From: Pseudomonadota bacterium
GTDB lineage: Bacteria; Pseudomonadota; Gammaproteobacteria; UBA12402
Assembly: GCA_039190005.1 (NCBI GenBank)
Contig: JBCCYM010000005.1
Location: forward strand, 1-55,940
Direction of reading: 5' to 3'
Length of the DNA stretch: 55,940 bases
The position numbers were made by a program, and so were the translations under genes. The first letter of the stretch is position 1, and each line of letters begins with the position of its first letter. This document shows, piece after piece, positions 3,254 to 29,304 of the stretch. The notes under the pieces were generated by a model. It was not told the DNA's origin, made no database searches, and saw nothing but the letters and a program-made list of their open reading frames with translations.

Positions 3254-3736
3254 CTATTTAACCCCTCTCTGATCAAAAAACATGACTATCAGTAATACTA
3301 TCACACCAACCGTAATCGCGCTATCGGCAATATTAAATGTGGCAAAATGCCAGCCATGAATATGGAAATCAATAAAATCGATCACATAACCCAAAGTGAG
3401 ACGACTCCAAAGATTACCGATTGCCCCGCCGATAATCAGCGCTAAGGCCAAGGATTTGAAGGGTTGACGCGACAATCGACACAACCACACAAGCATCACA
3501 ACACAGACAACCACGGTAATGGCAATAAACACCCATCGCTGCCAACCACCGGCACCGCCAAGAAAACTGAAAGCCGCGCCGGAATTATGAGCAAGACTAA
3601 GATTCAAAAAAGGTAGCAGATAATAGGGCTTATCAATATCAAGATATTTGGCAATCAAATACTTGCTGGATAAATCAAGCGCGATAATAATGATTGATAT
3701 AATCAACCAAGAAAGCTGTCGGCGGCGACTAAGCAT
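3254..3736 (-). CDS. lspA: Signal peptidase II
   Basis: NSGAAFS, GAIGNL, VIDFI and FNIADSAI motifs; ATG at 3736 overlaps the ileS stop. Confidence 0.96.
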   Translation of the reverse strand: MLSRRRQLSWLIISIIIIALDLSSKYLIAKYLDIDKPYYLLPFLNLSLAHNSGAAFSFLGGAGGWQRWVFIAITVVVCVVMLVWLCRLSRQPFKSLALALIIGGAIGNLWSRLTLGYVIDFIDFHIHGWHFATFNIADSAITVGVIVLLIVMFFDQRGVK

Positions 3737-6539
3737 AATGACGCACCTCACCCTGTTCAAAACAGTTACAAATACAACGTCGACAAAGTTGTGGATGATC
3801 AGCATGACTACCCACATCCGGACGATATTGCCAACAACGCGCGCACTTTTGATATCTTGATGGCGTGATCTTAATCGTTAATCCATCGACATCACTACTG
3901 ACACGCCCCGCTTCGGCTTTGTTCAACGGCAACACTTGTGCTTCCGACACAATCAAGACAAAACGCAACTCATCTTTGAATTGATCTAAACAGGCTTTTA
4001 AATCATCATCCGCGTATAATGTGACCGTGGCTTCAAGATTTGATCCCAGGTGTTTATCCGCGCGTAATCTTTCAATCTCTTTATTCACCGCGTCACGCAC
4101 ATTCATCACGGTTTGCCAATTGTCAGCGGAAATGCTCATCGCTTGTTCCGCCGGCAACTCATACCAGGTAGATAAAAATACTGACGCTTCACGTTCGCCT
4201 GACATGTGCTGCCAAATTTCATCCGCCGTGTAAGGGCAGATTGGCGCTAACAATCGCACCAGCACTTCCATAATATGCCACATGGCTGTCTGCGCTGAAC
4301 GACGGGCTTGACCATCAGTTTTAGCCGTGTATTGACGGTCTTTAATAATATCGAGATAAAAGCTCCCCATCTCGATGGAACAGAAATGATGAATAGCTTG
4401 CACCAATACATGAAATTGATAGTTATCATACGCCTGTTGTACGTTAGTTTGCAACTGTCGCGCGCGTTCAATCGCCCAGTGATCCAAGGCTAATAGTTTA
4501 TCAAGCGGCAATAAATGCTTGTCCACGGCAAAATCATTGAGATTCGCTAACAGGAAACGCGCGGTATTGCGAATACGACGATAGGTCTCACTACTGTGTT
4601 TGAGTATCGCTTCCGATACCACCATCTCGCGTTGATAATCGGTAGACGCTATCCATAAACGCAAGACATCAGCCCCCATTGTTTTGATAAGTTTATCCGG
4701 CGCGATCACATTGCCTAGTGATTTAGACATCTTGCGCCCTTCAGCGTCGACAGTAAAGCCATGCGTTAACACCTGACGATACGGTGCCACATGATACATG
4801 GCGCAGGAAGTCAATAAAGAGGTTTGAAACCAGCCGCGATGTTGATCGGAACCTTCAAGAAATAAATCCGCCGGAAACACCAATTCTTTTCTGGCTTTCA
4901 AGACACAGGCATGTATAACACCAGAATCAAACCAAACATCTAAGACATCCGAGCATTTCTTATAGTTATCGGCATCATCACCAAGCAATGCCCGCGTATC
5001 AAGGTCATGCCAGGCTTCAATGCCATCTTCAGCGACTAAATCAGCTATTTTTGCCATCAACGCGGTCGTATCAGGATGTAATTCATCGGTGTCTTTATGC
5101 AGAAATAACGGTAATGGCACACCCCAGGTACGTTGTCGTGAAATACACCAGTCTGGTCTATCTTCCAACATCGCCATCATGCGATGCTTGCCGTTTTCCG
5201 GTATCCATCGCACCTGCTCAACTTCATGGGTGGCATGATCAAGCAAATGGTTTTTTTCCATACTGATAAACCACTGTGGTGTCGCGCGATAGATCAATGG
5301 CGTTTTATGACGCCAGCAATGCGGATAACTGTGTAATAATTTTTCTTCATGCAATAGATGATCATGTTGGCGCAGTAAATCAATAATGACTGGATTCGCC
5401 GCGTTTAAATGTAGCCCCTCTATTTCCGGCATATCTGCGGCGAAACAGCCGCGATCATTTAATGGCGTATCCAAAGGTAAATCATGGGCGATGCCTAAAG
5501 CGTAATCCTCCAAACCATGCGCTGGCGCGGTATGCACACAACCAGTACCACTATCGACAGTGACATGATCGCCGGCTAAAACGGGTACCTGTCGATCGAG
5601 AAAAGGATGATGTAATTGTAAGCCAACGAGTCTTTCCCCCAGACTATGGCCAAGCACCGTATATTTTTCGATACCGCAACGCATCATTACCGCGCCGACC
5701 AAGGGTTCGGCAATAATAATCACACGCTGATCAAATGTGAGTAACACATAGTTAACGTCTTCATGCACGGCAACAGCCTGGTTGGCTGGCAAGGTCCAAG
5801 GTGTGGTTGTCCAGATAACGACGGCACAGTTAGCAACGATATTGTCGAAATCGCCATTAAAACGGCTCAATAAATCTTCACGATCCACCACATCAAAACA
5901 AACATCTATCGATGGTGATTCTTTATCGCGATATTCAACCTCCGCTTCAGCCAATGCTGAAGCGCATTTAAAACACCAGTGAACCGGCTTATAGCCACGC
6001 TGCAAATGGTGATTATCAATAATTGTCGCCAGACTGCGAATAATATTAGCTTCAAAGCGAGCATTCATTGTTAAATAAGGATTATCCCAATCGCCAAAGA
6101 TACCCAGACGTTTAAACGCAGTTTTCTGTAATTCAATCTGTGAATTGGCGTAATCACGGCAAGCTTGACGAAATGCCTTGCTCGATACTTTATCGCCCGC
6201 TTTACCTATTTTTTTTTCGACATTCAATTCAATCGGCAAGCCATGACAGTCCCAACCCGGCACATAGGGCACCCGATACCCCGCCATTAACTTGCTTTTC
6301 AGCACAATATCTTTCAAGGTTTTATTGACAGCATGTCCCAAATGGATGGCGCCATTGGCATAAGGTGGTCCATCACATAACATAAAAACGGGCGCCTCAG
6401 CACGCTGGGTTTGCAAATGATGATAGATATCCAAGGCCTCCCAACGTTTTGCCATTTCCGGTTCACGTTGCGCCAGATTGGCTTTCATAGGGAAATCTGT
6501 CTTTGGAAGATTGAGTGTATTTTTGTAATTATCTGTCAT
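3729..6539 (-). CDS. ileS: Isoleucine--tRNA ligase (type 1)
   Basis: GPPYANG..HLGH, WTTTPWT, KMSKS and a C-terminal zinc finger. Confidence 0.99.
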   Translation of the reverse strand: MTDNYKNTLNLPKTDFPMKANLAQREPEMAKRWEALDIYHHLQTQRAEAPVFMLCDGPPYANGAIHLGHAVNKTLKDIVLKSKLMAGYRVPYVPGWDCHGLPIELNVEKKIGKAGDKVSSKAFRQACRDYANSQIELQKTAFKRLGIFGDWDNPYLTMNARFEANIIRSLATIIDNHHLQRGYKPVHWCFKCASALAEAEVEYRDKESPSIDVCFDVVDREDLLSRFNGDFDNIVANCAVVIWTTTPWTLPANQAVAVHEDVNYVLLTFDQRVIIIAEPLVGAVMMRCGIEKYTVLGHSLGERLVGLQLHHPFLDRQVPVLAGDHVTVDSGTGCVHTAPAHGLEDYALGIAHDLPLDTPLNDRGCFAADMPEIEGLHLNAANPVIIDLLRQHDHLLHEEKLLHSYPHCWRHKTPLIYRATPQWFISMEKNHLLDHATHEVEQVRWIPENGKHRMMAMLEDRPDWCISRQRTWGVPLPLFLHKDTDELHPDTTALMAKIADLVAEDGIEAWHDLDTRALLGDDADNYKKCSDVLDVWFDSGVIHACVLKARKELVFPADLFLEGSDQHRGWFQTSLLTSCAMYHVAPYRQVLTHGFTVDAEGRKMSKSLGNVIAPDKLIKTMGADVLRLWIASTDYQREMVVSEAILKHSSETYRRIRNTARFLLANLNDFAVDKHLLPLDKLLALDHWAIERARQLQTNVQQAYDNYQFHVLVQAIHHFCSIEMGSFYLDIIKDRQYTAKTDGQARRSAQTAMWHIMEVLVRLLAPICPYTADEIWQHMSGEREASVFLSTWYELPAEQAMSISADNWQTVMNVRDAVNKEIERLRADKHLGSNLEATVTLYADDDLKACLDQFKDELRFVLIVSEAQVLPLNKAEAGRVSSDVDGLTIKITPSRYQKCARCWQYRPDVGSHADHPQLCRRCICNCFEQGEVRHYA

Positions 6540-10491: not shown

Positions 10492-11418
10492 TCACAAGCT
10501 GGCGCCCGCAAAAAACCGCCGAGCCGCCTGATTATCTATTTCCATCTGTTGTTTTAACGCGTCCAGATTATCAAAGCTATCATCACCACGCAGTTTATGA
10601 CGAAAATCAACCTGTAGGCGACAACCATAGATGTCTTGATCAAAATCAAGAATAAATACTTCAAGAAGGTAGTATTTATCGCGTAGCGTTGCTTGTCGAC
10701 TGATATAAGCGATACCGTTTAAACGCTGTTTCCCGACCCCACTTACATTAACAGCAAAAATACCTTCCAATGGCGGCTGTCGATGAAACAAGCGAATATT
10801 AGCGGTTGGGAAACCCAGTTTACGCCCCAGTTTTTTACCATGGATGACTCGGCCGGATATCGAATAATGACGTCCTAACAATGTTTTAACGTGATTAAAA
10901 TCACCTCGCTGTAAGCTGAGACGCAAATCAGTACTGCTCACCCGCTGATTATTCTGAGCGACCACGGGCAGTATTGATAATGCCTGTGGAAACATTTGTC
11001 GCAAATAATCGATGTCGCCTTGCTGCTTAAAGCCGAAACGAAAATCTTCCCCCAGTATTAATCCTTTCACCTTGAGTCTTTTTTTCAAATACCGCTCAAC
11101 AAAGGCTTCTTTGCTTAATTGAGCAAATGATTGATCAAATCGCACCAAAAAGAGTTTATCAACACCATATTGGCGTAAAATCGTTATTTTCTCACCCAAG
11201 CTTGTCAATCTTAGCGGCAGTTTTTGCTGACTAAAAAACTCACGCGGCAATGGTTCAAATGTCATGACTGCCGCCGGCACGGCTAATTGTCGCGCCTTAT
11301 TGACCAAGGCCTTGATAAGTGCTTGATGCCCCCTATGTAGCCCATCAAAATTACCAATAGCCAGCACACAGCCATTTGTGTCGCTGCGTATTTTATCATT
11401 GTCTCGAATCAGTCGCAT
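10492..11418 (-). CDS. ribF: Bifunctional riboflavin kinase/FAD synthetase
   Basis: IGNFDGLHRGH, VSST and GRKLGFPTAN motifs. Confidence 0.96.
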   Translation of the reverse strand: MRLIRDNDKIRSDTNGCVLAIGNFDGLHRGHQALIKALVNKARQLAVPAAVMTFEPLPREFFSQQKLPLRLTSLGEKITILRQYGVDKLFLVRFDQSFAQLSKEAFVERYLKKRLKVKGLILGEDFRFGFKQQGDIDYLRQMFPQALSILPVVAQNNQRVSSTDLRLSLQRGDFNHVKTLLGRHYSISGRVIHGKKLGRKLGFPTANIRLFHRQPPLEGIFAVNVSGVGKQRLNGIAYISRQATLRDKYYLLEVFILDFDQDIYGCRLQVDFRHKLRGDDSFDNLDALKQQMEIDNQAARRFFAGASL

Positions 11419-20746: not shown

Positions 20747-20899
20747 TATAAAACTTCTCCTCTTCGCATTAACACTAAATCAAATTTGCTTCTATTATGC
20801 GTAAACAAACCCAAAAAGTCTAGAATTTGTTAGAAACAATTATTTATACAAATAAAATCAATAACTTAAAAATTTTTCGCGTCTAAGTTAAAAAAACAC

Positions 20900-20941
20900 T
20901 TGACAATCGTTTGTATCTATGTAATATTACAAAGATACAAA
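20900..20941 (+). promoter_or_regulatory. trp operon promoter overlapped by a 32-bp operator-like palindrome
   Basis: TTGACA at 20900 and TAATAT at 20922; TTTGTATCT-A-TGTAATATTACA-A-AGATACAAA at 20910-20941. Confidence 0.8.
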
Positions 20942-20955
20942 TAAAAGGGTAAATT

Positions 20956-22434
20956 ATGTTTAAAAAATTAAGTTATGATCAATTTGCGAGCTTGACCGCT
21001 CAACATAAGCGCATAGCGGTGTATCAAGAAATAGCCGGTGATAAAATAACGCCGGTGACTGCCTATTTAGCTTTAGCGCAATCGACAAAAGATATTACGC
21101 TGTTGGAATCGTCACCTAAAGAAAAAGATACAGGGCGTTATTCGCATCTTTTTATTCATCCACTGATTACCATTACCACATTTGGCAATCAGATTACTAT
21201 CTCAGAACAAGCTAATAAAAAGCATTTGCAGGCTGATCCTTTTGTGATATTAAAACAGTATCAGCAAAAACTAAAAGCTAAAATAGCGCACCTTTTATCT
21301 AAATTTGCCGGTGGCATGGTGGGTTATATCGCTTATGATGCCATTCGTTTAGTTGAAACCATTCCTGATCGACATGAGAATAAAAATAACATGCCCGATA
21401 TCTTATTCAGATTCTATCGTGACACCATTACGTTTGATCATCAAACCGGCAAAGTGATCATCGCTACAGTGATAAACAGTGATGACAATCCTCAAGATGC
21501 TTATCAAACGGCAACCGATAGAATAAACAACATCATAGAGAAAATTTCTCAGGCAACAACACAGCAACATAGCGCCGTATCACAACATAAAAACAGCTCC
21601 GCGGATATTGCCATTGATATAACTGATAAAGATTATTGTGCTATTGTTGATCAAGCTAAAAAACATATTATAAACGGCGATATTTTTCAGGTGGTACTAT
21701 CACGCGAATTCAGCATCAAAACTGCTAGTCATCCATTTGAGATTTATCGCGCCTTACGATTTTGCAATCCCTCACCATACATGTTTTATCTGGAAACAGA
21801 TGATTTTACAGTCGCGGGCGCCTCGCCGGAAAAATTAATTACTGTTGAAGATGGTGTAATTGAATCTCGTCCACTTGCTGGCACACGTCCGAGAAGCAAT
21901 CCAGCAAATGATGAAGCGGTAGCCACGGAACTACTCTCAGATGATAAAGAAGTCGCTGAACATATGATGTTGGTTGATTTGGCACGCAATGATGTTGGCG
22001 CCGTCGCCGAACCCGGCACGGTCAAGGTGGTAAAATTAAAAGAAATTGAAAAATATAGTCGTGTCATGCATATTTCTTCGACAGTCCAAGGTAAGTTACA
22101 CCAAAATTTAAGCGCCATGGATGCCTTGAGAATTGCTTTCCCCGCCGGCACATTGAGTGGCGCACCAAAAATTCGCGCCATGGAAATTATTGATCAATTA
22201 GAGCGATCACGTCGCGGTATTTATGGCGGCGCTGTTTGCGCCTTTGATAGCCTGGATAATCTCATAAGCTGTATTGTCATTCGCACTGTGTTAGTGCAAA
22301 ACAATACCGCTTCAATACGAGCGGGCGCCGGTATTGTATTTGATTCGCATGGACAAACGGAAGCCAATGAAACACAGCATAAAGCTAGCGCGACATTACA
22401 CGCCATTCAATCGGCTATGGGAGAAAATATATGA
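20956..22434 (+). CDS. trpE: Anthranilate synthase component I
   Basis: LLES, NPSPYM, EHMMLVDLARND and PAGTLSGAPK. Confidence 0.96.
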   Translation: MFKKLSYDQFASLTAQHKRIAVYQEIAGDKITPVTAYLALAQSTKDITLLESSPKEKDTGRYSHLFIHPLITITTFGNQITISEQANKKHLQADPFVILKQYQQKLKAKIAHLLSKFAGGMVGYIAYDAIRLVETIPDRHENKNNMPDILFRFYRDTITFDHQTGKVIIATVINSDDNPQDAYQTATDRINNIIEKISQATTQQHSAVSQHKNSSADIAIDITDKDYCAIVDQAKKHIINGDIFQVVLSREFSIKTASHPFEIYRALRFCNPSPYMFYLETDDFTVAGASPEKLITVEDGVIESRPLAGTRPRSNPANDEAVATELLSDDKEVAEHMMLVDLARNDVGAVAEPGTVKVVKLKEIEKYSRVMHISSTVQGKLHQNLSAMDALRIAFPAGTLSGAPKIRAMEIIDQLERSRRGIYGGAVCAFDSLDNLISCIVIRTVLVQNNTASIRAGAGIVFDSHGQTEANETQHKASATLHAIQSAMGENI

Positions 22435-23000
22435 TACTTATTATTGATAATTATGACAGTTTTACCTATAACTTATATCAACTGCTCGCGCCGATTACTA
22501 GTGATATTGAAGTATATCGCAATGATAAAATCACCCTTGATGAAATAAGCGCACTAGCGCCCAAAGCCATTATCTTATCGCCGGGACCTGGTTATCCTGA
22601 AAATGCCGGTATTTGCATTGACCTTATTAAAAAATTTGCCGGTCATATTCCTCTATTAGGTGTATGTCTTGGGCATCAAGCCATTGCAGCAGCATTCGGT
22701 GGAAAAATTATGCATGCCAAAGAAATTGTGCATGGTAAAACCAGTAATATTTTTCATAACCGCAACACACTATACCAGGATATGCGCTTACCATTTGTGG
22801 CCGCGCGTTACCATTCATTAGTCGTTGATAAAGAAAGTCTGCCCGAAAGCTTACAAATCAATGCTGAAAATGATGAAGGTTTGATTATGGGTATCAATCA
22901 TCAACACTACCCTGTTTTTGGTGTGCAGTTTCATCCGGAATCCATTTTATCCAAGGATGGCAATAAACTGTTACACAACTTTATTCAACGTTGTCAGTAA
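22431..23000 (+). CDS. trpG: Anthranilate synthase component II
   Basis: IDNYDSFT, SPGPG, GVCLGHQ and FHPES. Confidence 0.96.
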   Translation: MILIIDNYDSFTYNLYQLLAPITSDIEVYRNDKITLDEISALAPKAIILSPGPGYPENAGICIDLIKKFAGHIPLLGVCLGHQAIAAAFGGKIMHAKEIVHGKTSNIFHNRNTLYQDMRLPFVAARYHSLVVDKESLPESLQINAENDEGLIMGINHQHYPVFGVQFHPESILSKDGNKLLHNFIQRCQ

Positions 23001-23012
23001 AAAAACCGCGTT

Positions 23013-24038
23013 ATGCTCAAAGAATATATTAAAAAATTAATTCATCGTCAGGATTTGACCGCAACTGAAATGAAAGAAGCAATACATTTATTAATAGACA
23101 GTGATAATGACATACAAATTGGCGCTTTTATGGCGTTATTACACGCTAAAGGTGAAACAGCTAGCGAAATTGATGCCATTAGCAACACCTTAATGGCGAT
23201 GATGATTAAAGTGCATCCTAAAACACCAGTACTAGATATTGTTGGCACCGGTGGCGATGGCTGTCATACCATTAATATTTCAACAGGCGCCGCTATTTTA
23301 GCCGCTGCCTGTGGTGTTAAAATCGCGAAACATGGCAATCGTGCTTCAACTTCTCTATGCGGCTCAGCCGATGTGCTAGAAAAACTAGGCATTACTATGA
23401 ATCTCAGTGCCGAGGAGGTTGCCAATAGCATTGATAACTGCAATTTTGGCTTTTGTTTTGCGCCCAATCACCACCCGGCTTTAGGAAAATTAAAAACGAT
23501 ACGCAAGAAACTCGAGGTCCCCACTGTATTTAATATCCTCGGACCATTACTAAACCCAGCGCGGGCGGATTTTCTCATGATTGGTGTCTTCAAACCGGAA
23601 TTACTGTCATTAATAAGTGATGTCTTAGGCAAAAGAAATATTAAACGCGCCTTAGTTTTTCATGGTCAGGGTACTGATGAAATCACTTGCATGGGTCGCA
23701 CACAGATCATTGAAATTAATGCCGGCAAACAACATGCTTTTATTTTGGAACCAAGAAATTATGGCTTTTCATCATGCACACTTGATGATTTGCGTGGTGA
23801 TAGCGCGGAAATAAATGCAACAATCCTCACAGAAGTATTGCAGGGGAAAACCGGCCCCATTGCTGATACATTCATTTTAAATGCCGGTCTGGCAAATTAT
23901 CTGTATGGACTTACCGATGATATCGATACGGGCATTGCATTAGCGCGAAAGAAACATCGTGATGGCGAGGCTGCCAAATTATTAAATCATCTAAAAGAAT
24001 ATTTATCATTTAGAAATGAGAGAAAAATCTATGCCTAA
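23013..24038 (+). CDS. trpD: Anthranilate phosphoribosyltransferase
   Basis: GTGGDG, NIST, KHGNR and NILGPL. Confidence 0.96.
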   Translation: MLKEYIKKLIHRQDLTATEMKEAIHLLIDSDNDIQIGAFMALLHAKGETASEIDAISNTLMAMMIKVHPKTPVLDIVGTGGDGCHTINISTGAAILAAACGVKIAKHGNRASTSLCGSADVLEKLGITMNLSAEEVANSIDNCNFGFCFAPNHHPALGKLKTIRKKLEVPTVFNILGPLLNPARADFLMIGVFKPELLSLISDVLGKRNIKRALVFHGQGTDEITCMGRTQIIEINAGKQHAFILEPRNYGFSSCTLDDLRGDSAEINATILTEVLQGKTGPIADTFILNAGLANYLYGLTDDIDTGIALARKKHRDGEAAKLLNHLKEYLSFRNERKIYA

Positions 24039-24822
24039 TATTTTACAAGAAATTTTAGCACACAAACATAAAGAAGTTGCTCAATTAAAACAACAGCTAG
24101 AAGCAACACATGGTGATTTGTCAGCCGAGAAAATCACCCGTGGTCATAGCCATTTATATCAAAAACAGTTTCAATCCGCTTTGAGCAAAGCTGGATTATC
24201 AATTATTGGCGAAATCAAACGCAAATCGCCGTCAAAAGGTGAATTAGCCCAAATAGCAGACCCTATTTCTCTGGCAGAAACCTATGCCAATGGCGGTATT
24301 GATGCCATTTCCATGCTTACCGATAAACAGTACTTTAATGGTTCGCTTGATGATTTAAAAACCGTGGCAAGTCGTTTGCAACAACCGATATTACGCAAAG
24401 ATTTTATTATTGATGCCGCACAGATTATCGAAACTGTCACCACCGGTGCCAGTGCTGTTTTACTGATTGTCGCAGCCCTTAAAGAAAAGACAGCATCATT
24501 ATTATCAATGGCTAGCGACTATGGTTTAGATGCTTTGGTTGAAGTACACAATCAACAAGAGCTCGATACAGCGCTAGCAGCGAAAGCGAAAATTATTGGC
24601 ATTAATAATCGTGATTTAACCACTTTTAATGTTGATCTCAACACTAGCATCAACTTAATTAAAAATATGCCTGAGGATGTCGTAAAAGTTACTGAATCCG
24701 GTATACGAAACCTTGATGATGTCCAACGTATTAAAGCTGCCGGCTTTGACGCGGCACTGATTGGTGAGGCACTCGTAAAAAGCGATCAGCCTGATGTATT
24801 TATTAAACAAATAAAATCATAA
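24031..24822 (+). CDS. trpC: Indole-3-glycerol phosphate synthase
   Basis: EIKRKSPS, LRKDFI, GINNRDL and ESGI; ATG at 24031 preferred. Confidence 0.96.
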   Translation: MPNILQEILAHKHKEVAQLKQQLEATHGDLSAEKITRGHSHLYQKQFQSALSKAGLSIIGEIKRKSPSKGELAQIADPISLAETYANGGIDAISMLTDKQYFNGSLDDLKTVASRLQQPILRKDFIIDAAQIIETVTTGASAVLLIVAALKEKTASLLSMASDYGLDALVEVHNQQELDTALAAKAKIIGINNRDLTTFNVDLNTSINLIKNMPEDVVKVTESGIRNLDDVQRIKAAGFDAALIGEALVKSDQPDVFIKQIKS

Positions 24823-24824
24823 TC

Positions 24825-25463
24825 ATGAAAGCAGTAACAAAAATTAAAATATGTGGCATTAAAGACGCGGTTTTAGCGTATCAAACAGCCAAAATGGGCG
24901 CCGATTATATTGGCTTGATGTTTTATCACAAATCAAAACGGTATATTGAATTAAATAACGCGATTGATATTTCAGCTGCGACTAGAAAAGGCGGCGCCGA
25001 ACCTGTCGCTGTATTTGTTGACCAAGACCTCAACACTATGCAACAAATATGTGCTACAGCAAATATCAATACTGTTCAATTACATGGTGATATTGCACGA
25101 CAGCAATATCACCTTTTGCCACAAACCATACAACGCATTTATGTATTACATGTCAATCCCGATGGTGATATCATAAATGCTGATCAAACTGTGCTTAAAT
25201 CATTTAACACCACACGCGACTACCTGTTATTTGATGGTTTGAAAGGTGGTTCAGGCGCTCAAATAAATACTGACAAAATCATACCCTATCTAAAAAATTT
25301 CAGATGTTTCGTTGCCGGTGGCTTGAATGCTGATAATGTCACCGCGGTGATAGATAAACTAAATCCTTACGCTGTTGATACCTCTTCCGGTGTAGAAAAT
25401 ACACCTGGTGAAAAATCAGCTAAACGCATTGAAGCATTTATTAAGATGGCACGCAAACAATGA
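24825..25463 (+). CDS. trpF: Phosphoribosylanthranilate isomerase
   Basis: KICGI, QLHG, AGGL and VDTSSGVE. Confidence 0.95.
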   Translation: MKAVTKIKICGIKDAVLAYQTAKMGADYIGLMFYHKSKRYIELNNAIDISAATRKGGAEPVAVFVDQDLNTMQQICATANINTVQLHGDIARQQYHLLPQTIQRIYVLHVNPDGDIINADQTVLKSFNTTRDYLLFDGLKGGSGAQINTDKIIPYLKNFRCFVAGGLNADNVTAVIDKLNPYAVDTSSGVENTPGEKSAKRIEAFIKMARKQ

Positions 25464-26653
25464 CGATGAATACTGAATACAAGTCAAAAACTTATTATGG
25501 TGATTTTGGTGGCATGTTTATGCCTGAACTGCTGGCTACGGCTATGCAAGCGTTAGCCGATGAATTCGAGCGCGTTAAAACAGACCATACGTTTAAAAAC
25601 ACATTAACCACATTATTACAACAATATGCTGGCAGAGAAACACCCTTAACTGAAGTAAAAAATTTTCGCCAGGCTTGCGAGGGACCACAGGTTTTTCTAA
25701 AACGTGAAGATTTATTACACACCGGCGCGCATAAAATTAATAACGCGTTAGGACAATGCTTATTAGCCAAGCAAATGAAAAAAACCAGAGTCATTGCTGA
25801 AACCGGTGCCGGCCAGCATGGTGTTGCCACTGCCACCGCCTGCGCTCATTTTGGCTTGCAATGTGATATTTATATGGGGGAAATTGATAGGCAGCGTCAA
25901 TTACCCAATGTCGAAAAAATGAAGCTGCTGGGCGCAAATGTTATCAGCGTTGATAGTGGTAGCAAGACACTCAAAGATGCCGTCAACGCGGCAATGCGCG
26001 ACTATGCCGCGTCTTTTTCCAATACGCATTATTGTCTTGGTTCAGCCTTAGGTCCTTATCCTTATCCGCAAATGGTAGCTTATTTTCAAGCTGTCATCGG
26101 TGATGAAGTCAAGCGACAATGTAAAAATACGATTGGTAAAAATCCGGACACAATTATTGCCTGCATTGGTGGCGGATCAAATGCCATAGGGATTTTTTCC
26201 GCGTTTCTAAATGATGAAAGCGTTAAATTAGTAGGTGTTGAAGGTGGCGGTCATGGCACAAAATTAGGTCAACACGCGGCACGTTTCTCAGGTGGTCGAC
26301 CCGGTGTACTGCATGGGAGTTACAGCTATTTATTACAAGATGATCACGGTCAAATCGCGCCAACCCATTCCATTTCTGCCGGCTTGGATTACCCAATGAT
26401 TGGCCCTCAACACGCGGACTTATACACGCGAAATAGAGTACATTATACCTCAGCAACGGATATAGAAGCTTTACACGCGTTTGAATTATTATCGCGAACA
26501 GAAGGCATCATCCCCGCCTTAGAATCATCACACGCCCTCGCCTATTATATTAACAACGCTAAACACTTTGCCAAAGAAGATTGTGTTGTCATCAATCTTT
26601 CCGGTCGCGGTGATAAAGATTTGCCGGCATTACTTGCCAAAGGTTTATTATGA
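25460..26653 (+). CDS. trpB: Tryptophan synthase beta chain
   Basis: KREDLLHTGAHK, ETGAGQHG, GGGSNA and SGRGDKD. Confidence 0.98.
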   Translation: MTMNTEYKSKTYYGDFGGMFMPELLATAMQALADEFERVKTDHTFKNTLTTLLQQYAGRETPLTEVKNFRQACEGPQVFLKREDLLHTGAHKINNALGQCLLAKQMKKTRVIAETGAGQHGVATATACAHFGLQCDIYMGEIDRQRQLPNVEKMKLLGANVISVDSGSKTLKDAVNAAMRDYAASFSNTHYCLGSALGPYPYPQMVAYFQAVIGDEVKRQCKNTIGKNPDTIIACIGGGSNAIGIFSAFLNDESVKLVGVEGGGHGTKLGQHAARFSGGRPGVLHGSYSYLLQDDHGQIAPTHSISAGLDYPMIGPQHADLYTRNRVHYTSATDIEALHAFELLSRTEGIIPALESSHALAYYINNAKHFAKEDCVVINLSGRGDKDLPALLAKGLL

Positions 26654-27417
26654 ATAAAATCGAATACACATTTGCGCGAAAACCCGCTTTTATTGCCTAC
26701 CTTACTGCGGGTCAACGTAGTTTAGCATTTACTCAAGACGCTGCCATTGCCTTGGTACAAGGTGGTGTCAGCTTGCTAGAAATTGGCGTGCCTTTTTCTG
26801 ATCCCATTGCGGACGGTCCGGTTATCCAATCGGCGATGCAGCAAGGTGTTGAAGCAAATATTACCATTAATACAGTATTGGAAGTGATTCAAAACATAAA
26901 AAAAACCATTGACGTGCCGATTATATTGTTCACCTATTACAATCCTTTGCTAAATGCTGCTAACAATAATATTTACGAGAAAGCACGCGTAGCAGGTGTT
27001 GATGGCGTGTTAGTTGTCGACTTACCCTTAGAAGAAGCTGATGATCATTTTAATCAATGCAAGCAGTACAATATCAGTCCTATCTCTGTGATTGCAAGCT
27101 CAACAGCTGTTGATCGCATTCAACGCATCGGCCAGAAATCAAGTGGCTTTCTTTATTACGCCTGTCGTAATGGCACAACCGGCATTAAACGCAGTCTCCC
27201 GGATAATTATCAGGACAAGGTACAACAGATTAAACAATGTTCTCATTTACCTGTCGCTGCTGGTTTTGGTATCTCAGATAAAAAAACCGCGGCGGCGGCA
27301 TTAAGCTGCGCTGATGGTTTTGTGGTCGGTTCTTTATTCATTAAAGCCATTGCCGCGCGAGCGACTACCAAAGAATTAACACAACTAGCACAACAAATTG
27401 ATCCAAGAGGTACATAA
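26650..27417 (+). CDS. trpA: Tryptophan synthase alpha chain
   Basis: EIGVPFSDPIADGPVIQ, GTTG and GFGI. Confidence 0.97.
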   Translation: MNKIEYTFARKPAFIAYLTAGQRSLAFTQDAAIALVQGGVSLLEIGVPFSDPIADGPVIQSAMQQGVEANITINTVLEVIQNIKKTIDVPIILFTYYNPLLNAANNNIYEKARVAGVDGVLVVDLPLEEADDHFNQCKQYNISPISVIASSTAVDRIQRIGQKSSGFLYYACRNGTTGIKRSLPDNYQDKVQQIKQCSHLPVAAGFGISDKKTAAAALSCADGFVVGSLFIKAIAARATTKELTQLAQQIDPRGT

Positions 27418-27419
27418 CC

Positions 27420-28439
27420 ATGATTTTAGTTCTAGATAATCAAGCAACAAATGATGAGATAAAAAATCTACAGCAGCGGTTAAAATTTATGGGTTTTGAA
27501 GCGATTATTTCAAACGAAAACGCGCAAAAAACCATTTCACTCGTCAAAGGTGTGGATAAAAATACCGATATAAAAGGATTTATCAATCTCCCATTGGTAA
27601 AAGAAATATTACCACTGAAGACAAAATTTGGCTTGGCAAACAAAGATGCCAAAGCACAGCAAACGGTTATTCGCATTAAAGATAAAAAAATCGGCGGCGG
27701 TCATTTTACTGTCATGGCCGGACCTTGCGCGATTGAATCACGACAACAAATTCTAGCCATTGCTAAAGCAGTGAGTAGCAATGGCGCCAGCATATTAAGA
27801 GGCGGTGCTTTCAAACCGAGGACATCACCTTACGATTTTCAAGGTTTAGGCGAAGTCGGTTTACACTATATGCGTGAAGCGGCAGATCGATATAATTTAC
27901 TTTGTATCTCTGAAGTCATGAATGCTAAAGATATTGATTTGTTGGAAAAATATGTTGATATCTTGCAGATCGGCGCCAGAAATATGCAAAATTATAATTT
28001 ATTAAAAGCCGCGGGACAGGCAAAAAAACCGGTGTTTTTGAAACGAGGCTTAAGCGCCACTTACAACGAATTTTTGTTAGCGGCTGAATATATTTTAAGC
28101 TGTGGCAATCCGAATGTCATTTTATGCGAACGCGGTATTAGAACCTTTGAAACCCATAGTCGTAACACACTTGATATTGCGGCCGTGCCGATATTGCGTG
28201 AACTCACTCATCTTCCCATTATTGTTGATCCCAGTCATGGCACCGGCATTAGAAACGCGGTAGCACCGATGGCTAACGCGGCAATGGCTGTGTGCGCGGA
28301 TGGCATTATGGTAGAAGTGCATACTGATCCTGATAAATCAGTGTCTGACGCGCAACAAGCCATTAGCCCAACCATGTTTGCCGATATGATGCGGTCTTTA
28401 CGCGGTATCGCAAAAGCGGTTGATATGACCATTGATTGA
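27420..28439 (+). CDS. aroF: DAHP synthase class I-beta with an N-terminal regulatory domain
   Basis: [29 protein letters not shown] and DPSH. Confidence 0.92.
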
Positions 28440-28446
28440 AAAATTA

Positions 28447-29304
28447 TTATATAGCCAGGGTGATTTTTTGCTTAAATGCTCGTATTTTTTCCTGTAGTCT
28501 TTTTTTCTCATCGTCAGAACAGGATATATCAGCAATAGCTTTATGGTATCTGTTTAAACAATAAAGATATAATCTGGGTAAAAAAATCTTTATCTGTTCG
28601 ACATTATAATCGACAACTTGATTAGGATCGGTATTTCTCAGTTTATAGGCAACATTGATGATCTCAGAAACTTCTTCTGCTAGCGCTATTTTCCAGCTTT
28701 GATTGAAATGATTAACAGCATCTTTGTTAGATCCAATGGTATTCGGATAATCTATAGTAAAAATCAGTCTCACCGGAAATAACACAAATTTAGTGAAATA
28801 GCGTGAGCCTTTTTCTAAAATAATTTGTGGATTTCGCGTGAGTTCAATTCGTTTTTCTTCACTCAACATATAACTCAACATGAATTCAGCACTTTCGATA
28901 ATTAAATCTTCCGCTGTTGGTTCAGGTAAGCGATATCGGCGATCTTCACCCGATAATATAACAGCGTGTCGGATAAAATCGAGTCTATCTAAGGCTGGAA
29001 ATCTTCCTTTTCCATTTGCAAAATCATGGGTATGATAACTCGACCAGAACACAGATAATCTATTGGCATAATCATATTTTGATTTTTTTAACTTCTCCCA
29101 TAATGTGTTCATGACATCCGCATCTGATTCTAAAATATTATCTAGCATGATTGCGATATCAACATCACTGCATAAAGAGAAATCGCCGTGTGTGCCTAAG
29201 CTTCCAAGTTTAAACATAGTCATCACTCTATTTTTGAAAGTCTTTTGTATTTCTTGTATTGAATACTCAATAAGTGGTATAGCTTGGCTGGAAAAATGAT
29301 GCAT
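28447..29304 (-). CDS. Pol-beta superfamily nucleotidyltransferase-like protein
   Basis: LGSLGTHGDFSLCSDVDIAI matches GS..DxD; predicted helical C-terminal half. Confidence 0.6.
   Translation of the reverse strand: MHHFSSQAIPLIEYSIQEIQKTFKNRVMTMFKLGSLGTHGDFSLCSDVDIAIMLDNILESDADVMNTLWEKLKKSKYDYANRLSVFWSSYHTHDFANGKGRFPALDRLDFIRHAVILSGEDRRYRLPEPTAEDLIIESAEFMLSYMLSEEKRIELTRNPQIILEKGSRYFTKFVLFPVRLIFTIDYPNTIGSNKDAVNHFNQSWKIALAEEVSEIINVAYKLRNTDPNQVVDYNVEQIKIFLPRLYLYCLNRYHKAIADISCSDDEKKRLQEKIRAFKQKITLAI

Follow-up and report, generated by a model that had tools for sequence, protein, structure and literature searches.

A stretch of 55,940 nucleotides from the genome of a Pseudomonadota bacterium (assembly GCA_039190005.1, contig JBCCYM010000005.1), called the window throughout, carries at positions 20956-28439 eight co-directional open reading frames (ORFs) on the + strand that correspond to trpE, G, D, C, F, B, A and a DAHP synthase gene. 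The proteins they encode contain no tryptophan (Trp). The operon is probably a case of the known cognate bias, the tendency of biosynthetic enzymes to avoid the amino acid they make, carried to completion: a compact trpEGDCFBA-aroA unit whose enzymes have shed every residue of the pathway's end product, in a state largely inherited within a clade of related operons. An earlier inspection of the letters and their translations, referred to here as the sequence-only reading, had described the operon as Trp-free, the DAHP synthase that forms its shikimate entry enzyme included. Both statements are upheld, with no TGG codon in frame in any of the eight genes and 0 Trp in the 339 aa of the DAHP synthase.

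Trp content against the genome background

The Trp-free state is real and statistically overwhelming against the genome background. The genome (1.81 Mb in 103 contigs, 98% complete) was represented by its longest non-overlapping ORFs of at least 100 aa, a crude set of 1488 ORFs and 510,362 residues that takes up 85% of the DNA and holds 1.13% Trp. At this frequency, 28.2 Trp are expected in the operon, where 0 are observed in 2493 residues (binomial P(0) 4.8e-13). The triplet TGG occurs 115 times on the + strand of the operon region, with phase counts inside the genes of 0 (in frame), 42, and 73. In the genome, 30% of ORFs of 100-150 aa are Trp-free, a share that drops with length to 7% for those of 400-500 aa, and the product of the length-matched zero-Trp fractions for the eight operon genes is ~3e-8. 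The operon is the sole Trp-free one among 866 same-contig blocks of eight consecutive ORFs and also the longest Trp-free gene run in the genome, the runner-up being hscA-hscB-iscA-iscU with 1039 aa. This second run, at G000:C66:4939-8077 (G000 being the genome of the window), consists of hscA, a 179-aa ORF without a Pfam match that is probably hscB, iscA, and iscU.

An explanation by chance, by a low genomic Trp background or by a different genetic code has in its favour only that Trp is missing from UvrC and from a second protein near the operon. The sequence-only reading had seen this in UvrC, correctly (0 in 604 aa), and had cautioned that the background may be low; a 308-aa ORF at 10492-11418, putatively the RibF of that reading, is Trp-free as well. 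The caution is not borne out, given the genome value of 1.13% and a value of 0.83% for window ORFs outside the operon (115 Trp in 13,884 residues), among them a 936-aa ORF at 3729-6539, putatively IleS, with 21 Trp. Chance and low background are refuted by the binomial, block, and length-matched comparisons. TGA ends 407 of the 1488 genome ORFs and four of the eight operon genes; it is an ordinary stop, so no recoding takes place here and an alternative code is ruled out. The probability left to this explanation is practically nil.

General economy is another candidate, in which Trp, as the costliest residue, is shunned in any highly expressed protein whatever its pathway. Long Trp-free proteins of the genome do include the abundant GroEL, ATP synthase beta, FtsZ, and ClpX, together with HscA, UvrB, and UvrC. 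However, the operon does not depart from the genome in its other costly or rare residues. Composition z-scores of the operon against the genome are -5.4 for Trp, -1.5 for Tyr, -0.4 for Met, +0.3 for Cys, and +1.0 for His (59 Met, 34 Cys, and 73 His in all), the largest negative value besides Trp being Phe at -2.3 and the largest positive one Ala at +4.0. The depletion is specific to Trp, with Cys, Met, His, and Tyr normal and Phe mildly low. Moreover, the genome's other aromatic operon, a run of eight ORFs and 2727 aa at C2:46321-54490 with a prephenate dehydratase match, retains 14 Trp. General cost saving is rejected on composition, since only Trp is depleted, and is very improbable as the cause. 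A within-genome paralogue control (BLASTP, E 1e-6) returned no second class I-beta DAHP synthase and no TrpE paralogue; its only matches were two amidotransferases distantly resembling TrpG, which have 5 and 2 Trp.

Orthologues outside the clade

The genome average is not the fairest yardstick, because orthologues of the trp enzymes are Trp-poor too. A species-genome scan with TrpB gave 73 loci from many phyla. Outside the clade to which the window operon belongs, mean Trp is 0.89 in TrpE, 0.74 in TrpG, 0.48 in TrpD, 0.42 in TrpC, 1.83 in TrpF, 0.99 in TrpB, 0.21 in TrpA, and 0.11 in DAHP synthase, which sums to 5.7 Trp for eight proteins. The fair baseline is thus about 6 Trp rather than 28, and from it the probability of none is 0.003 by Poisson or 0.001 as the product of the per-enzyme zero fractions.

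Among unrelated loci with at least six of the seven trp enzymes, Trp totals run from 1 to 11 in 24 genome loci and from 3 to 9 in 11 metagenome loci, of which at least one (L157) looks like a duplicate of L018; zero is reached in none of the 35. The metagenome scan that contributed these 11 baseline operons returned 51 loci, almost all at no more than 59% identity with a few short partial matches higher, and no identifiable clade member. The lowest unrelated totals, 1 Trp in seven enzymes, belong to the cultured Methanobacterium oryzae DSM 11106 (L060) and to a Methanobacterium metagenome-assembled genome (L043). Near-zero trp operons therefore exist in archaea taken to be free-living. The expectation of the sequence-only reading that orthologues of unrelated free-living taxa would not be equally Trp-free holds insofar as no zero was found, but the two Methanobacterium loci come close to overturning it.

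A clade of Trp-poor operons

In the genome collection, the order of the window comprises 14 genomes of one family, and TrpB was found in three of them only (G000, G002, and G010). A class sample of 400 genomes, spread evenly, has TrpB in 340 at E 1e-80; in 15 of the 400 the protein is 61-69% identical to that of the window, the next best being 57%. This tally takes in four genomes flagged unpublished, on which the other results do not rest. The related regions that were fetched all share the trp gene order of the window, and a terminal DAHP synthase gene is present in 10 of the 15 fetched related operons covering at least seven enzymes. In a FastTree of the seven concatenated enzymes from 39 loci, the window and the related operons form one clade, sister to three Bacteroidota-type loci. 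Identity between clade operons is 36-69%, and the genes flanking them carry 0.5-2.2% Trp. Searches centred on G102, G175, and G404 yielded one new clade operon only, in G428, where 4.3 kb lie between trpG and trpD (L196).

The Trp totals of the clade, counted over BLAST-aligned parts only in the 16 genomes with at least seven enzymes covered, are as follows:

0 Trp: window, G102, G182, G175, G428
1 Trp: G311, G404, G130, G284
2 Trp: G002
3 Trp: G010, G169
4 Trp: G144
6 Trp: G401
7 Trp: G123
8 Trp: G356

Five of the 16 genomes thus have no Trp and four have one, with a median of 1. Given these counts, and an average of 5.7 rather than 28 in orthologues outside the clade, the complete avoidance cannot be called extreme relative to orthologues, as it had been from the sequence alone.

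Among 5.8 billion proteins searched, 119 further TrpB clusters were recovered, with identities of 51-73% that fall below 64% in a single case. They bear the names Legionellales bacterium, Gammaproteobacteria bacterium, and Candidatus Paracoxiella cheracis. Trp is absent from 56 of the 119 (43 of 100 single TrpB proteins and 13 of 19 TrpF-TrpB fusions), and in a tree of 139 TrpB sequences most Trp-free ones, window included, fall in one block. The operon is patchy in three small-genome orders, with TrpB in 3 of 14, 1 of 6, and 2 of 22 genomes.

In the Trp-free locus L126 (G102:C2:139000-156500), TrpD and TrpC match one 576-aa ORF and TrpF and TrpB one 590-aa ORF, making two fusions. In L134 (G146:C2), the TrpB match has one in-frame TGA, and the fetched stretch, which stops at the contig end, yielded neither TrpE nor TrpG. 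This operon may be in decay.

Conserved Trp positions replaced

In the alignment of the fetched loci, 52 of 68 TrpB orthologues from outside the clade have W where the window has Y182 (MRDY), and 34 of 38 such TrpF orthologues have W where the window has T149 (INT). Both had been picked out in the sequence-only reading as commonly Trp positions (RDW to RDY, and the FDW segment to INT), and rightly so. They are the pathway's two most conserved Trp, and both had to be exchanged for the operon to become Trp-free. A third, EEW to NEF in the DAHP synthase, is not such a position in the orthologues sampled: of 20, a single one has W there, 11 have F, and 8 have L. TrpA commonly lacks Trp, as it does in 34 of the 42 orthologues from outside the clade.

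The only Trp widely shared within the clade is that of TrpB MRDW, replaced by Y in the window, G102, and G175, and by I in G182. Sixteen TrpB proteins outside the clade are Trp-free too, with Y or L at the MRDW site, from Lactobacillus, Clostridia, Gastranaerophilales, a Psychromonas, and others (L002, L003, L032, L046, L047, L050-L052, L055, L057, L059, L061-L064, and L073). No further trp gene was found within the fetched flanks of these loci.

These positions bear on an explanation by inheritance and drift, in which the clade ancestor already stood at one or two Trp, the rest were lost neutrally, and the exact zero means nothing. The median of 1 and the single widely shared Trp fit such a course, as does the residue Y at the MRDW site in 14 of the 68 TrpB outside the clade. 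The clustering of most Trp-free TrpB in one tree block implies few loss events, and the residues found at the TrpF site within the clade are as varied (T, F, P, L, I, E, and K) as at a relaxed position. Yet the clade operons are only 36-69% identical, and five of them have gained no Trp over ~2400 residues, next to flanking genes at 0.5-2.2%. At least two replacement events are needed in TrpB, since some genomes have Y and G182 has I, and the W/Y/I site changed at least seven times on the 139-sequence tree, a count that the FastTree topology may inflate. Drift from a nearly Trp-free ancestor is on balance an unlikely account of the whole.

Operon layout, promoter, and TrpR

The gene names come from an NCBIfam model search, and the bit scores below are followed in brackets by the curated cut-offs, which all products but TrpF exceed.

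20956..22434, + strand: trpE, anthranilate synthase component I, 492 aa, 0 Trp; TIGR00564 518.4 (517.7); LLES and NPSPY motifs
22431..23000, + strand: trpG, glutamine amidotransferase component II, 189 aa, 0 Trp; TIGR00566 243.7 (121); ATGA overlap with trpE
23013..24038, + strand: trpD, anthranilate phosphoribosyltransferase, 341 aa, 0 Trp; TIGR01245 354.6 (199); GTGGD motif
24016..24822, + strand: trpC, indole-3-glycerol phosphate synthase, 268 aa, 0 Trp; NF001377 292 (260); called start overlaps trpD by 23 nt
24825..25463, + strand: trpF, phosphoribosylanthranilate isomerase, 212 aa, 0 Trp; best NF002298 146.7, below its cut-off (215)
25460..26653, + strand: trpB, tryptophan synthase beta, 397 aa, 0 Trp; TIGR00263 588.6 (392); HTGAHK and GGGSN motifs
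26650..27417, + strand: trpA, tryptophan synthase alpha, 255 aa, 0 Trp; TIGR00262 220.8 (102)
27420..28439, + strand: aroA/aroG-type DAHP synthase, class I-beta (Bacillus subtilis kind), 339 aa, 0 Trp; NF006421 454.9 (335)
20900..20927, + strand: predicted sigma-70-type promoter, TTGACA (20900-20905), 16-nt spacer, TAATAT (20922-20927); 10 of 12 matches in a consensus scan
20911..20940, + strand: 30-bp palindrome with one mismatch, overlapping the -10 hexamer; predicted, probably a TrpR-type operator

Catalytic or ligand motifs were looked for and found in TrpB, TrpD, TrpE, TrpG, and the DAHP synthase; LLES and NPSPY of TrpE presumably mark the Trp feedback site. The spacing from gene to gene is -4, 12, -23, 2, -4, -4, and 2 nt (minus denoting overlap), the DAHP synthase gene coming last and starting 2 nt past trpA. 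With overlaps of 4 or 23 nt and otherwise gaps of 2 to 12 nt, the eight genes form one translationally coupled unit. The 5′ neighbour of the operon is a divergent sugar-porter MFS gene. On the other side lies a convergent 285-aa ORF on the - strand (28447-29304), separated by 7 nt from the stop of the DAHP synthase gene and unmatched in NCBIfam at E 1e-5.

The TAATAT hexamer lies 28 nt from the trpE start, and the TTGACA hexamer aligns with the same hexamer 5′ of the first operon gene in relatives. Related operons share an upstream motif before trpR or trpE, TTGACA followed by TTGTACTnATGTAnCATTACA, which the window promoter fits; in the alignment of this motif (A1), the L135 row is misaligned. 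Leader-peptide attenuation is rejected for the window: no + strand ORF of at least 20 aa is present in 20747-20955 (shorter ones being unlisted), no terminator-like site was found there, and only 28 nt separate the -10 from the ATG.

Two TrpR-family ORFs are encoded in the genome (PF01371, 84.7 and 75.3 bits), neither as first gene of the operon. The TrpR orthologue, at G000:C17:823-1146, is 46-52% identical to the operon-linked trpR product in 11 of the 12 related loci holding one; for the twelfth, L132, the best match is the other TrpR-family ORF. The linked trpR lies directly 5′ of trpE in nine loci (L126, L127, L128, L137-L139, L104, L105, and L130) and 3′ of trpA in three. Unlike the enzymes, all 12 linked TrpR copies keep 1-2 Trp in ~96 residues, and where TrpR is linked to a Trp-free operon, every other product of the unit lacks Trp. 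That TrpR represses the window operon can reasonably be inferred from the encoded TrpR orthologue, the symmetric palindrome over the -10 hexamer, and the shared upstream motif.

Lifestyle markers

A third explanation places the selection in a host. Bacteria living in eukaryotic cells that withhold Trp would be starved of it, and the operon would be a counter-measure of the kind argued for Chlamydiae, in which host Trp depletion drives the Down-Trp selection described in Chlamydiaceae (PMC3937554; this and the other papers cited below are drawn on in excerpt). Consistent with such a history, DotA (TIGR04346), a marker of type IVB secretion, scores above cut-off in all 10 of the other carriers of the operon type that were tested, as it does in 12 of the 13 remaining genomes of the window's order; G404, G130, and G284 have it in multiple copies. 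The first figure overstates the host link, because kin are not independent. The genomes are small (1.2-2.4 Mb, with one exception of 8.3 Mb), retention of the operon is patchy, and the nearest named relatives are Legionellales bacteria and Ca. Paracoxiella cheracis. Histidinol dehydrogenase (PF00815) was not found in this 98%-complete genome and is present in all 14 control genomes, which hints at dependence on outside amino acids and possible histidine auxotrophy; the genome keeps full Trp and Phe/Tyr branches all the same.

Against a host as the driver, DotA was not found in this genome, either by the family model or by tblastn with the DotA of G002, and has either gone unassembled or been lost. 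ATP/ADP translocase was not found either, in a search without a positive control. The DotA-positive carriers span 0 to 8 Trp, some having 6-8, and the Methanobacterium loci, one from a cultured strain, go down to 1. To our knowledge, no Trp-withholding defence is known in protists. The markers suit a lineage dependent on hosts, in which import is the main source of Trp and a Trp-free operon is occasionally kept. Host-imposed starvation, suggested in the sequence-only reading, accordingly keeps its circumstantial support from the other carriers and loses it in the genome at hand and in the Trp-richer carriers. As the selecting force it is doubtful.

Interpretation

Completed cognate bias, shared by descent, accounts best for these observations. 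In the mechanism proposed, a TrpR-type repressor encoded elsewhere in the genome would keep the promoter shut through the palindromic operator while Trp is available, and a drop in Trp would open it. As none of the eight genes has a Trp codon, the whole branch, including its own shikimate entry enzyme, could then be made without charged tRNA-Trp. The Trp-free state would be largely inherited within a clade of operons in Legionellales-like bacteria rather than having evolved in this genome alone.

The idea of a rescue module that stays translatable when Trp is scarce, put forward from the sequence alone, survives in its rationale, which is the accepted one for cognate bias, and fails as a claim of self-sufficiency. 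Chorismate supply and tRNA charging rely on Trp-containing proteins, namely the other aromatic operon with its 14 Trp and tryptophanyl-tRNA synthetase with 6 in 400 aa. The operon is therefore makeable without Trp only if those proteins already exist.

This dependence is one of several points that weigh against the interpretation. Repression, derepression, and a fitness benefit are a proposal built on sequence features. Zero and one Trp are not demonstrably different and, as natural TrpB proteins often vary from W to Y at the MRDW site, drift may account for the loss of the last Trp. TrpF scores under every NCBIfam equivalog cut-off, the best score being the NF002298 value listed above. The background is an ORF call rather than an annotation, and the clade totals cover aligned parts only. 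For the zero of G102, the DAHP synthase is aligned only from residue 48. The Trp-free operon of G428 (L196, G428:C32:297000-312196) looks damaged, its TrpE aligning over query residues 112-423 and its TrpD from 107. Finally, kinship with the operons of Simkania and Coxiella, discussed below, is argued from architecture, cluster names, and the clade.

A stronger version, in which the exact zero is itself a selected threshold, is distinctly unlikely. It would make the clade bootstrap-proof, with the branch built without charged tRNA-Trp and host withholding as the driver. Through deep divergence, zero would have been reached and maintained by exchanging the Trp of TrpF and even the nearly universal one of TrpB (mostly for Y, at least once for I). 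Synthesis of the Trp-containing TrpR would fall with the Trp supply, so that TrpR might act as a second, translational sensor.

Completed cognate bias has consequences of its own. In the operon, nature offers a clear illustration of the lengths to which selection against a pathway's own product can run, over ~2,500 residues and in operons 36-69% identical. The conserved Trp of TrpB and of TrpF are dispensable in nature, and natural Trp-free versions of both are useful to anyone wanting such enzymes, for example in labelling or cell-free work.

Comparison with known systems

Low cognate amino-acid bias of biosynthetic enzymes was reportedly set out by Alves and Savageau in 2005, and Down-Trp selection in Chlamydiaceae is said to have been treated by Lo et al. 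in 2012. As in that bias, the enzymes of the window avoid the amino acid they produce (none in 2493 residues against 1.13%). A low Trp bias was found in almost every one of 1,526 proteomes, and tryptophan synthase alpha, which lacks Trp, gave the first hint and is the classic example (Fasani and Savageau 2014, PMC4209129). Translatability under Trp scarcity is the accepted rationale (PMC4209129; PMC3937554). In the excerpts drawn on, the 2014 survey scores only the final enzyme of each pathway (PMC4209129), whereas here the avoidance is total over seven pathway enzymes and the shikimate entry enzyme and is common to a clade.

The model for Chlamydiaceae builds on a host defence that has been documented and on a persistence state. 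Proteins needed while the host withholds Trp are Trp-poor there, the chorismate pathway being a striking case (Bonner et al. 2014, PMC3937554). In the genome of the window, that of an uncultured bacterium, the common aromatic pathway is not Trp-free.

The closest published architecture is that of Simkania negevensis, with overlapping genes in the order trpR-trpEGDCFBA-aroA (PMC3937554). Table 1 of the same paper gives 5 Trp over the seven enzymes in Simkania and 1 in Coxiella burnetii and attributes the low content to cognate bias, and Piscirickettsia is added to the group in another paper (PMC4916741). The window shares the gene order, the compact overlapping build, and the terminal class I-beta DAHP synthase with Simkania, and its protein lengths are close to the published ones, with a Trp count of 0 against 5 and 1. 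Where Simkania has trpR as first gene, the window has the divergent MFS gene instead. In Coxiella, trpR is unlinked, the DAHP synthase is absent from the operon, and TrpF and TrpB are fused (PMC3937554). The window likewise has an unlinked trpR, but it retains the DAHP synthase and keeps TrpF and TrpB separate, fusion being found in 19 of its 119 nearest clusters.

The principle, and a near-zero count in a relative, are already in print, and there is no new kind of biology here. No published description of a wholly Trp-free trp operon was found in a search that covered few subscription journals. What is modestly new is the prevalence of wholly Trp-free operons in the clade, the replaced Trp of TrpB and TrpF, and the breadth of the Simkania/Coxiella type. 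The operon type had been described as transferred between two organisms; here it turns up, with patchy retention, across many gammaproteobacterial lineages with small genomes, and its breadth bears on how such bacteria obtain Trp.

The trp operon of Escherichia coli is governed by the TrpL leader-peptide attenuator together with TrpR. The feature shared with the window is the probable TrpR-type repression, through an operator that overlaps the promoter. Unlike it, the window lacks a leader peptide, tandem Trp codons, and a terminator hairpin, with room for only 28 nt between the -10 hexamer and trpE.

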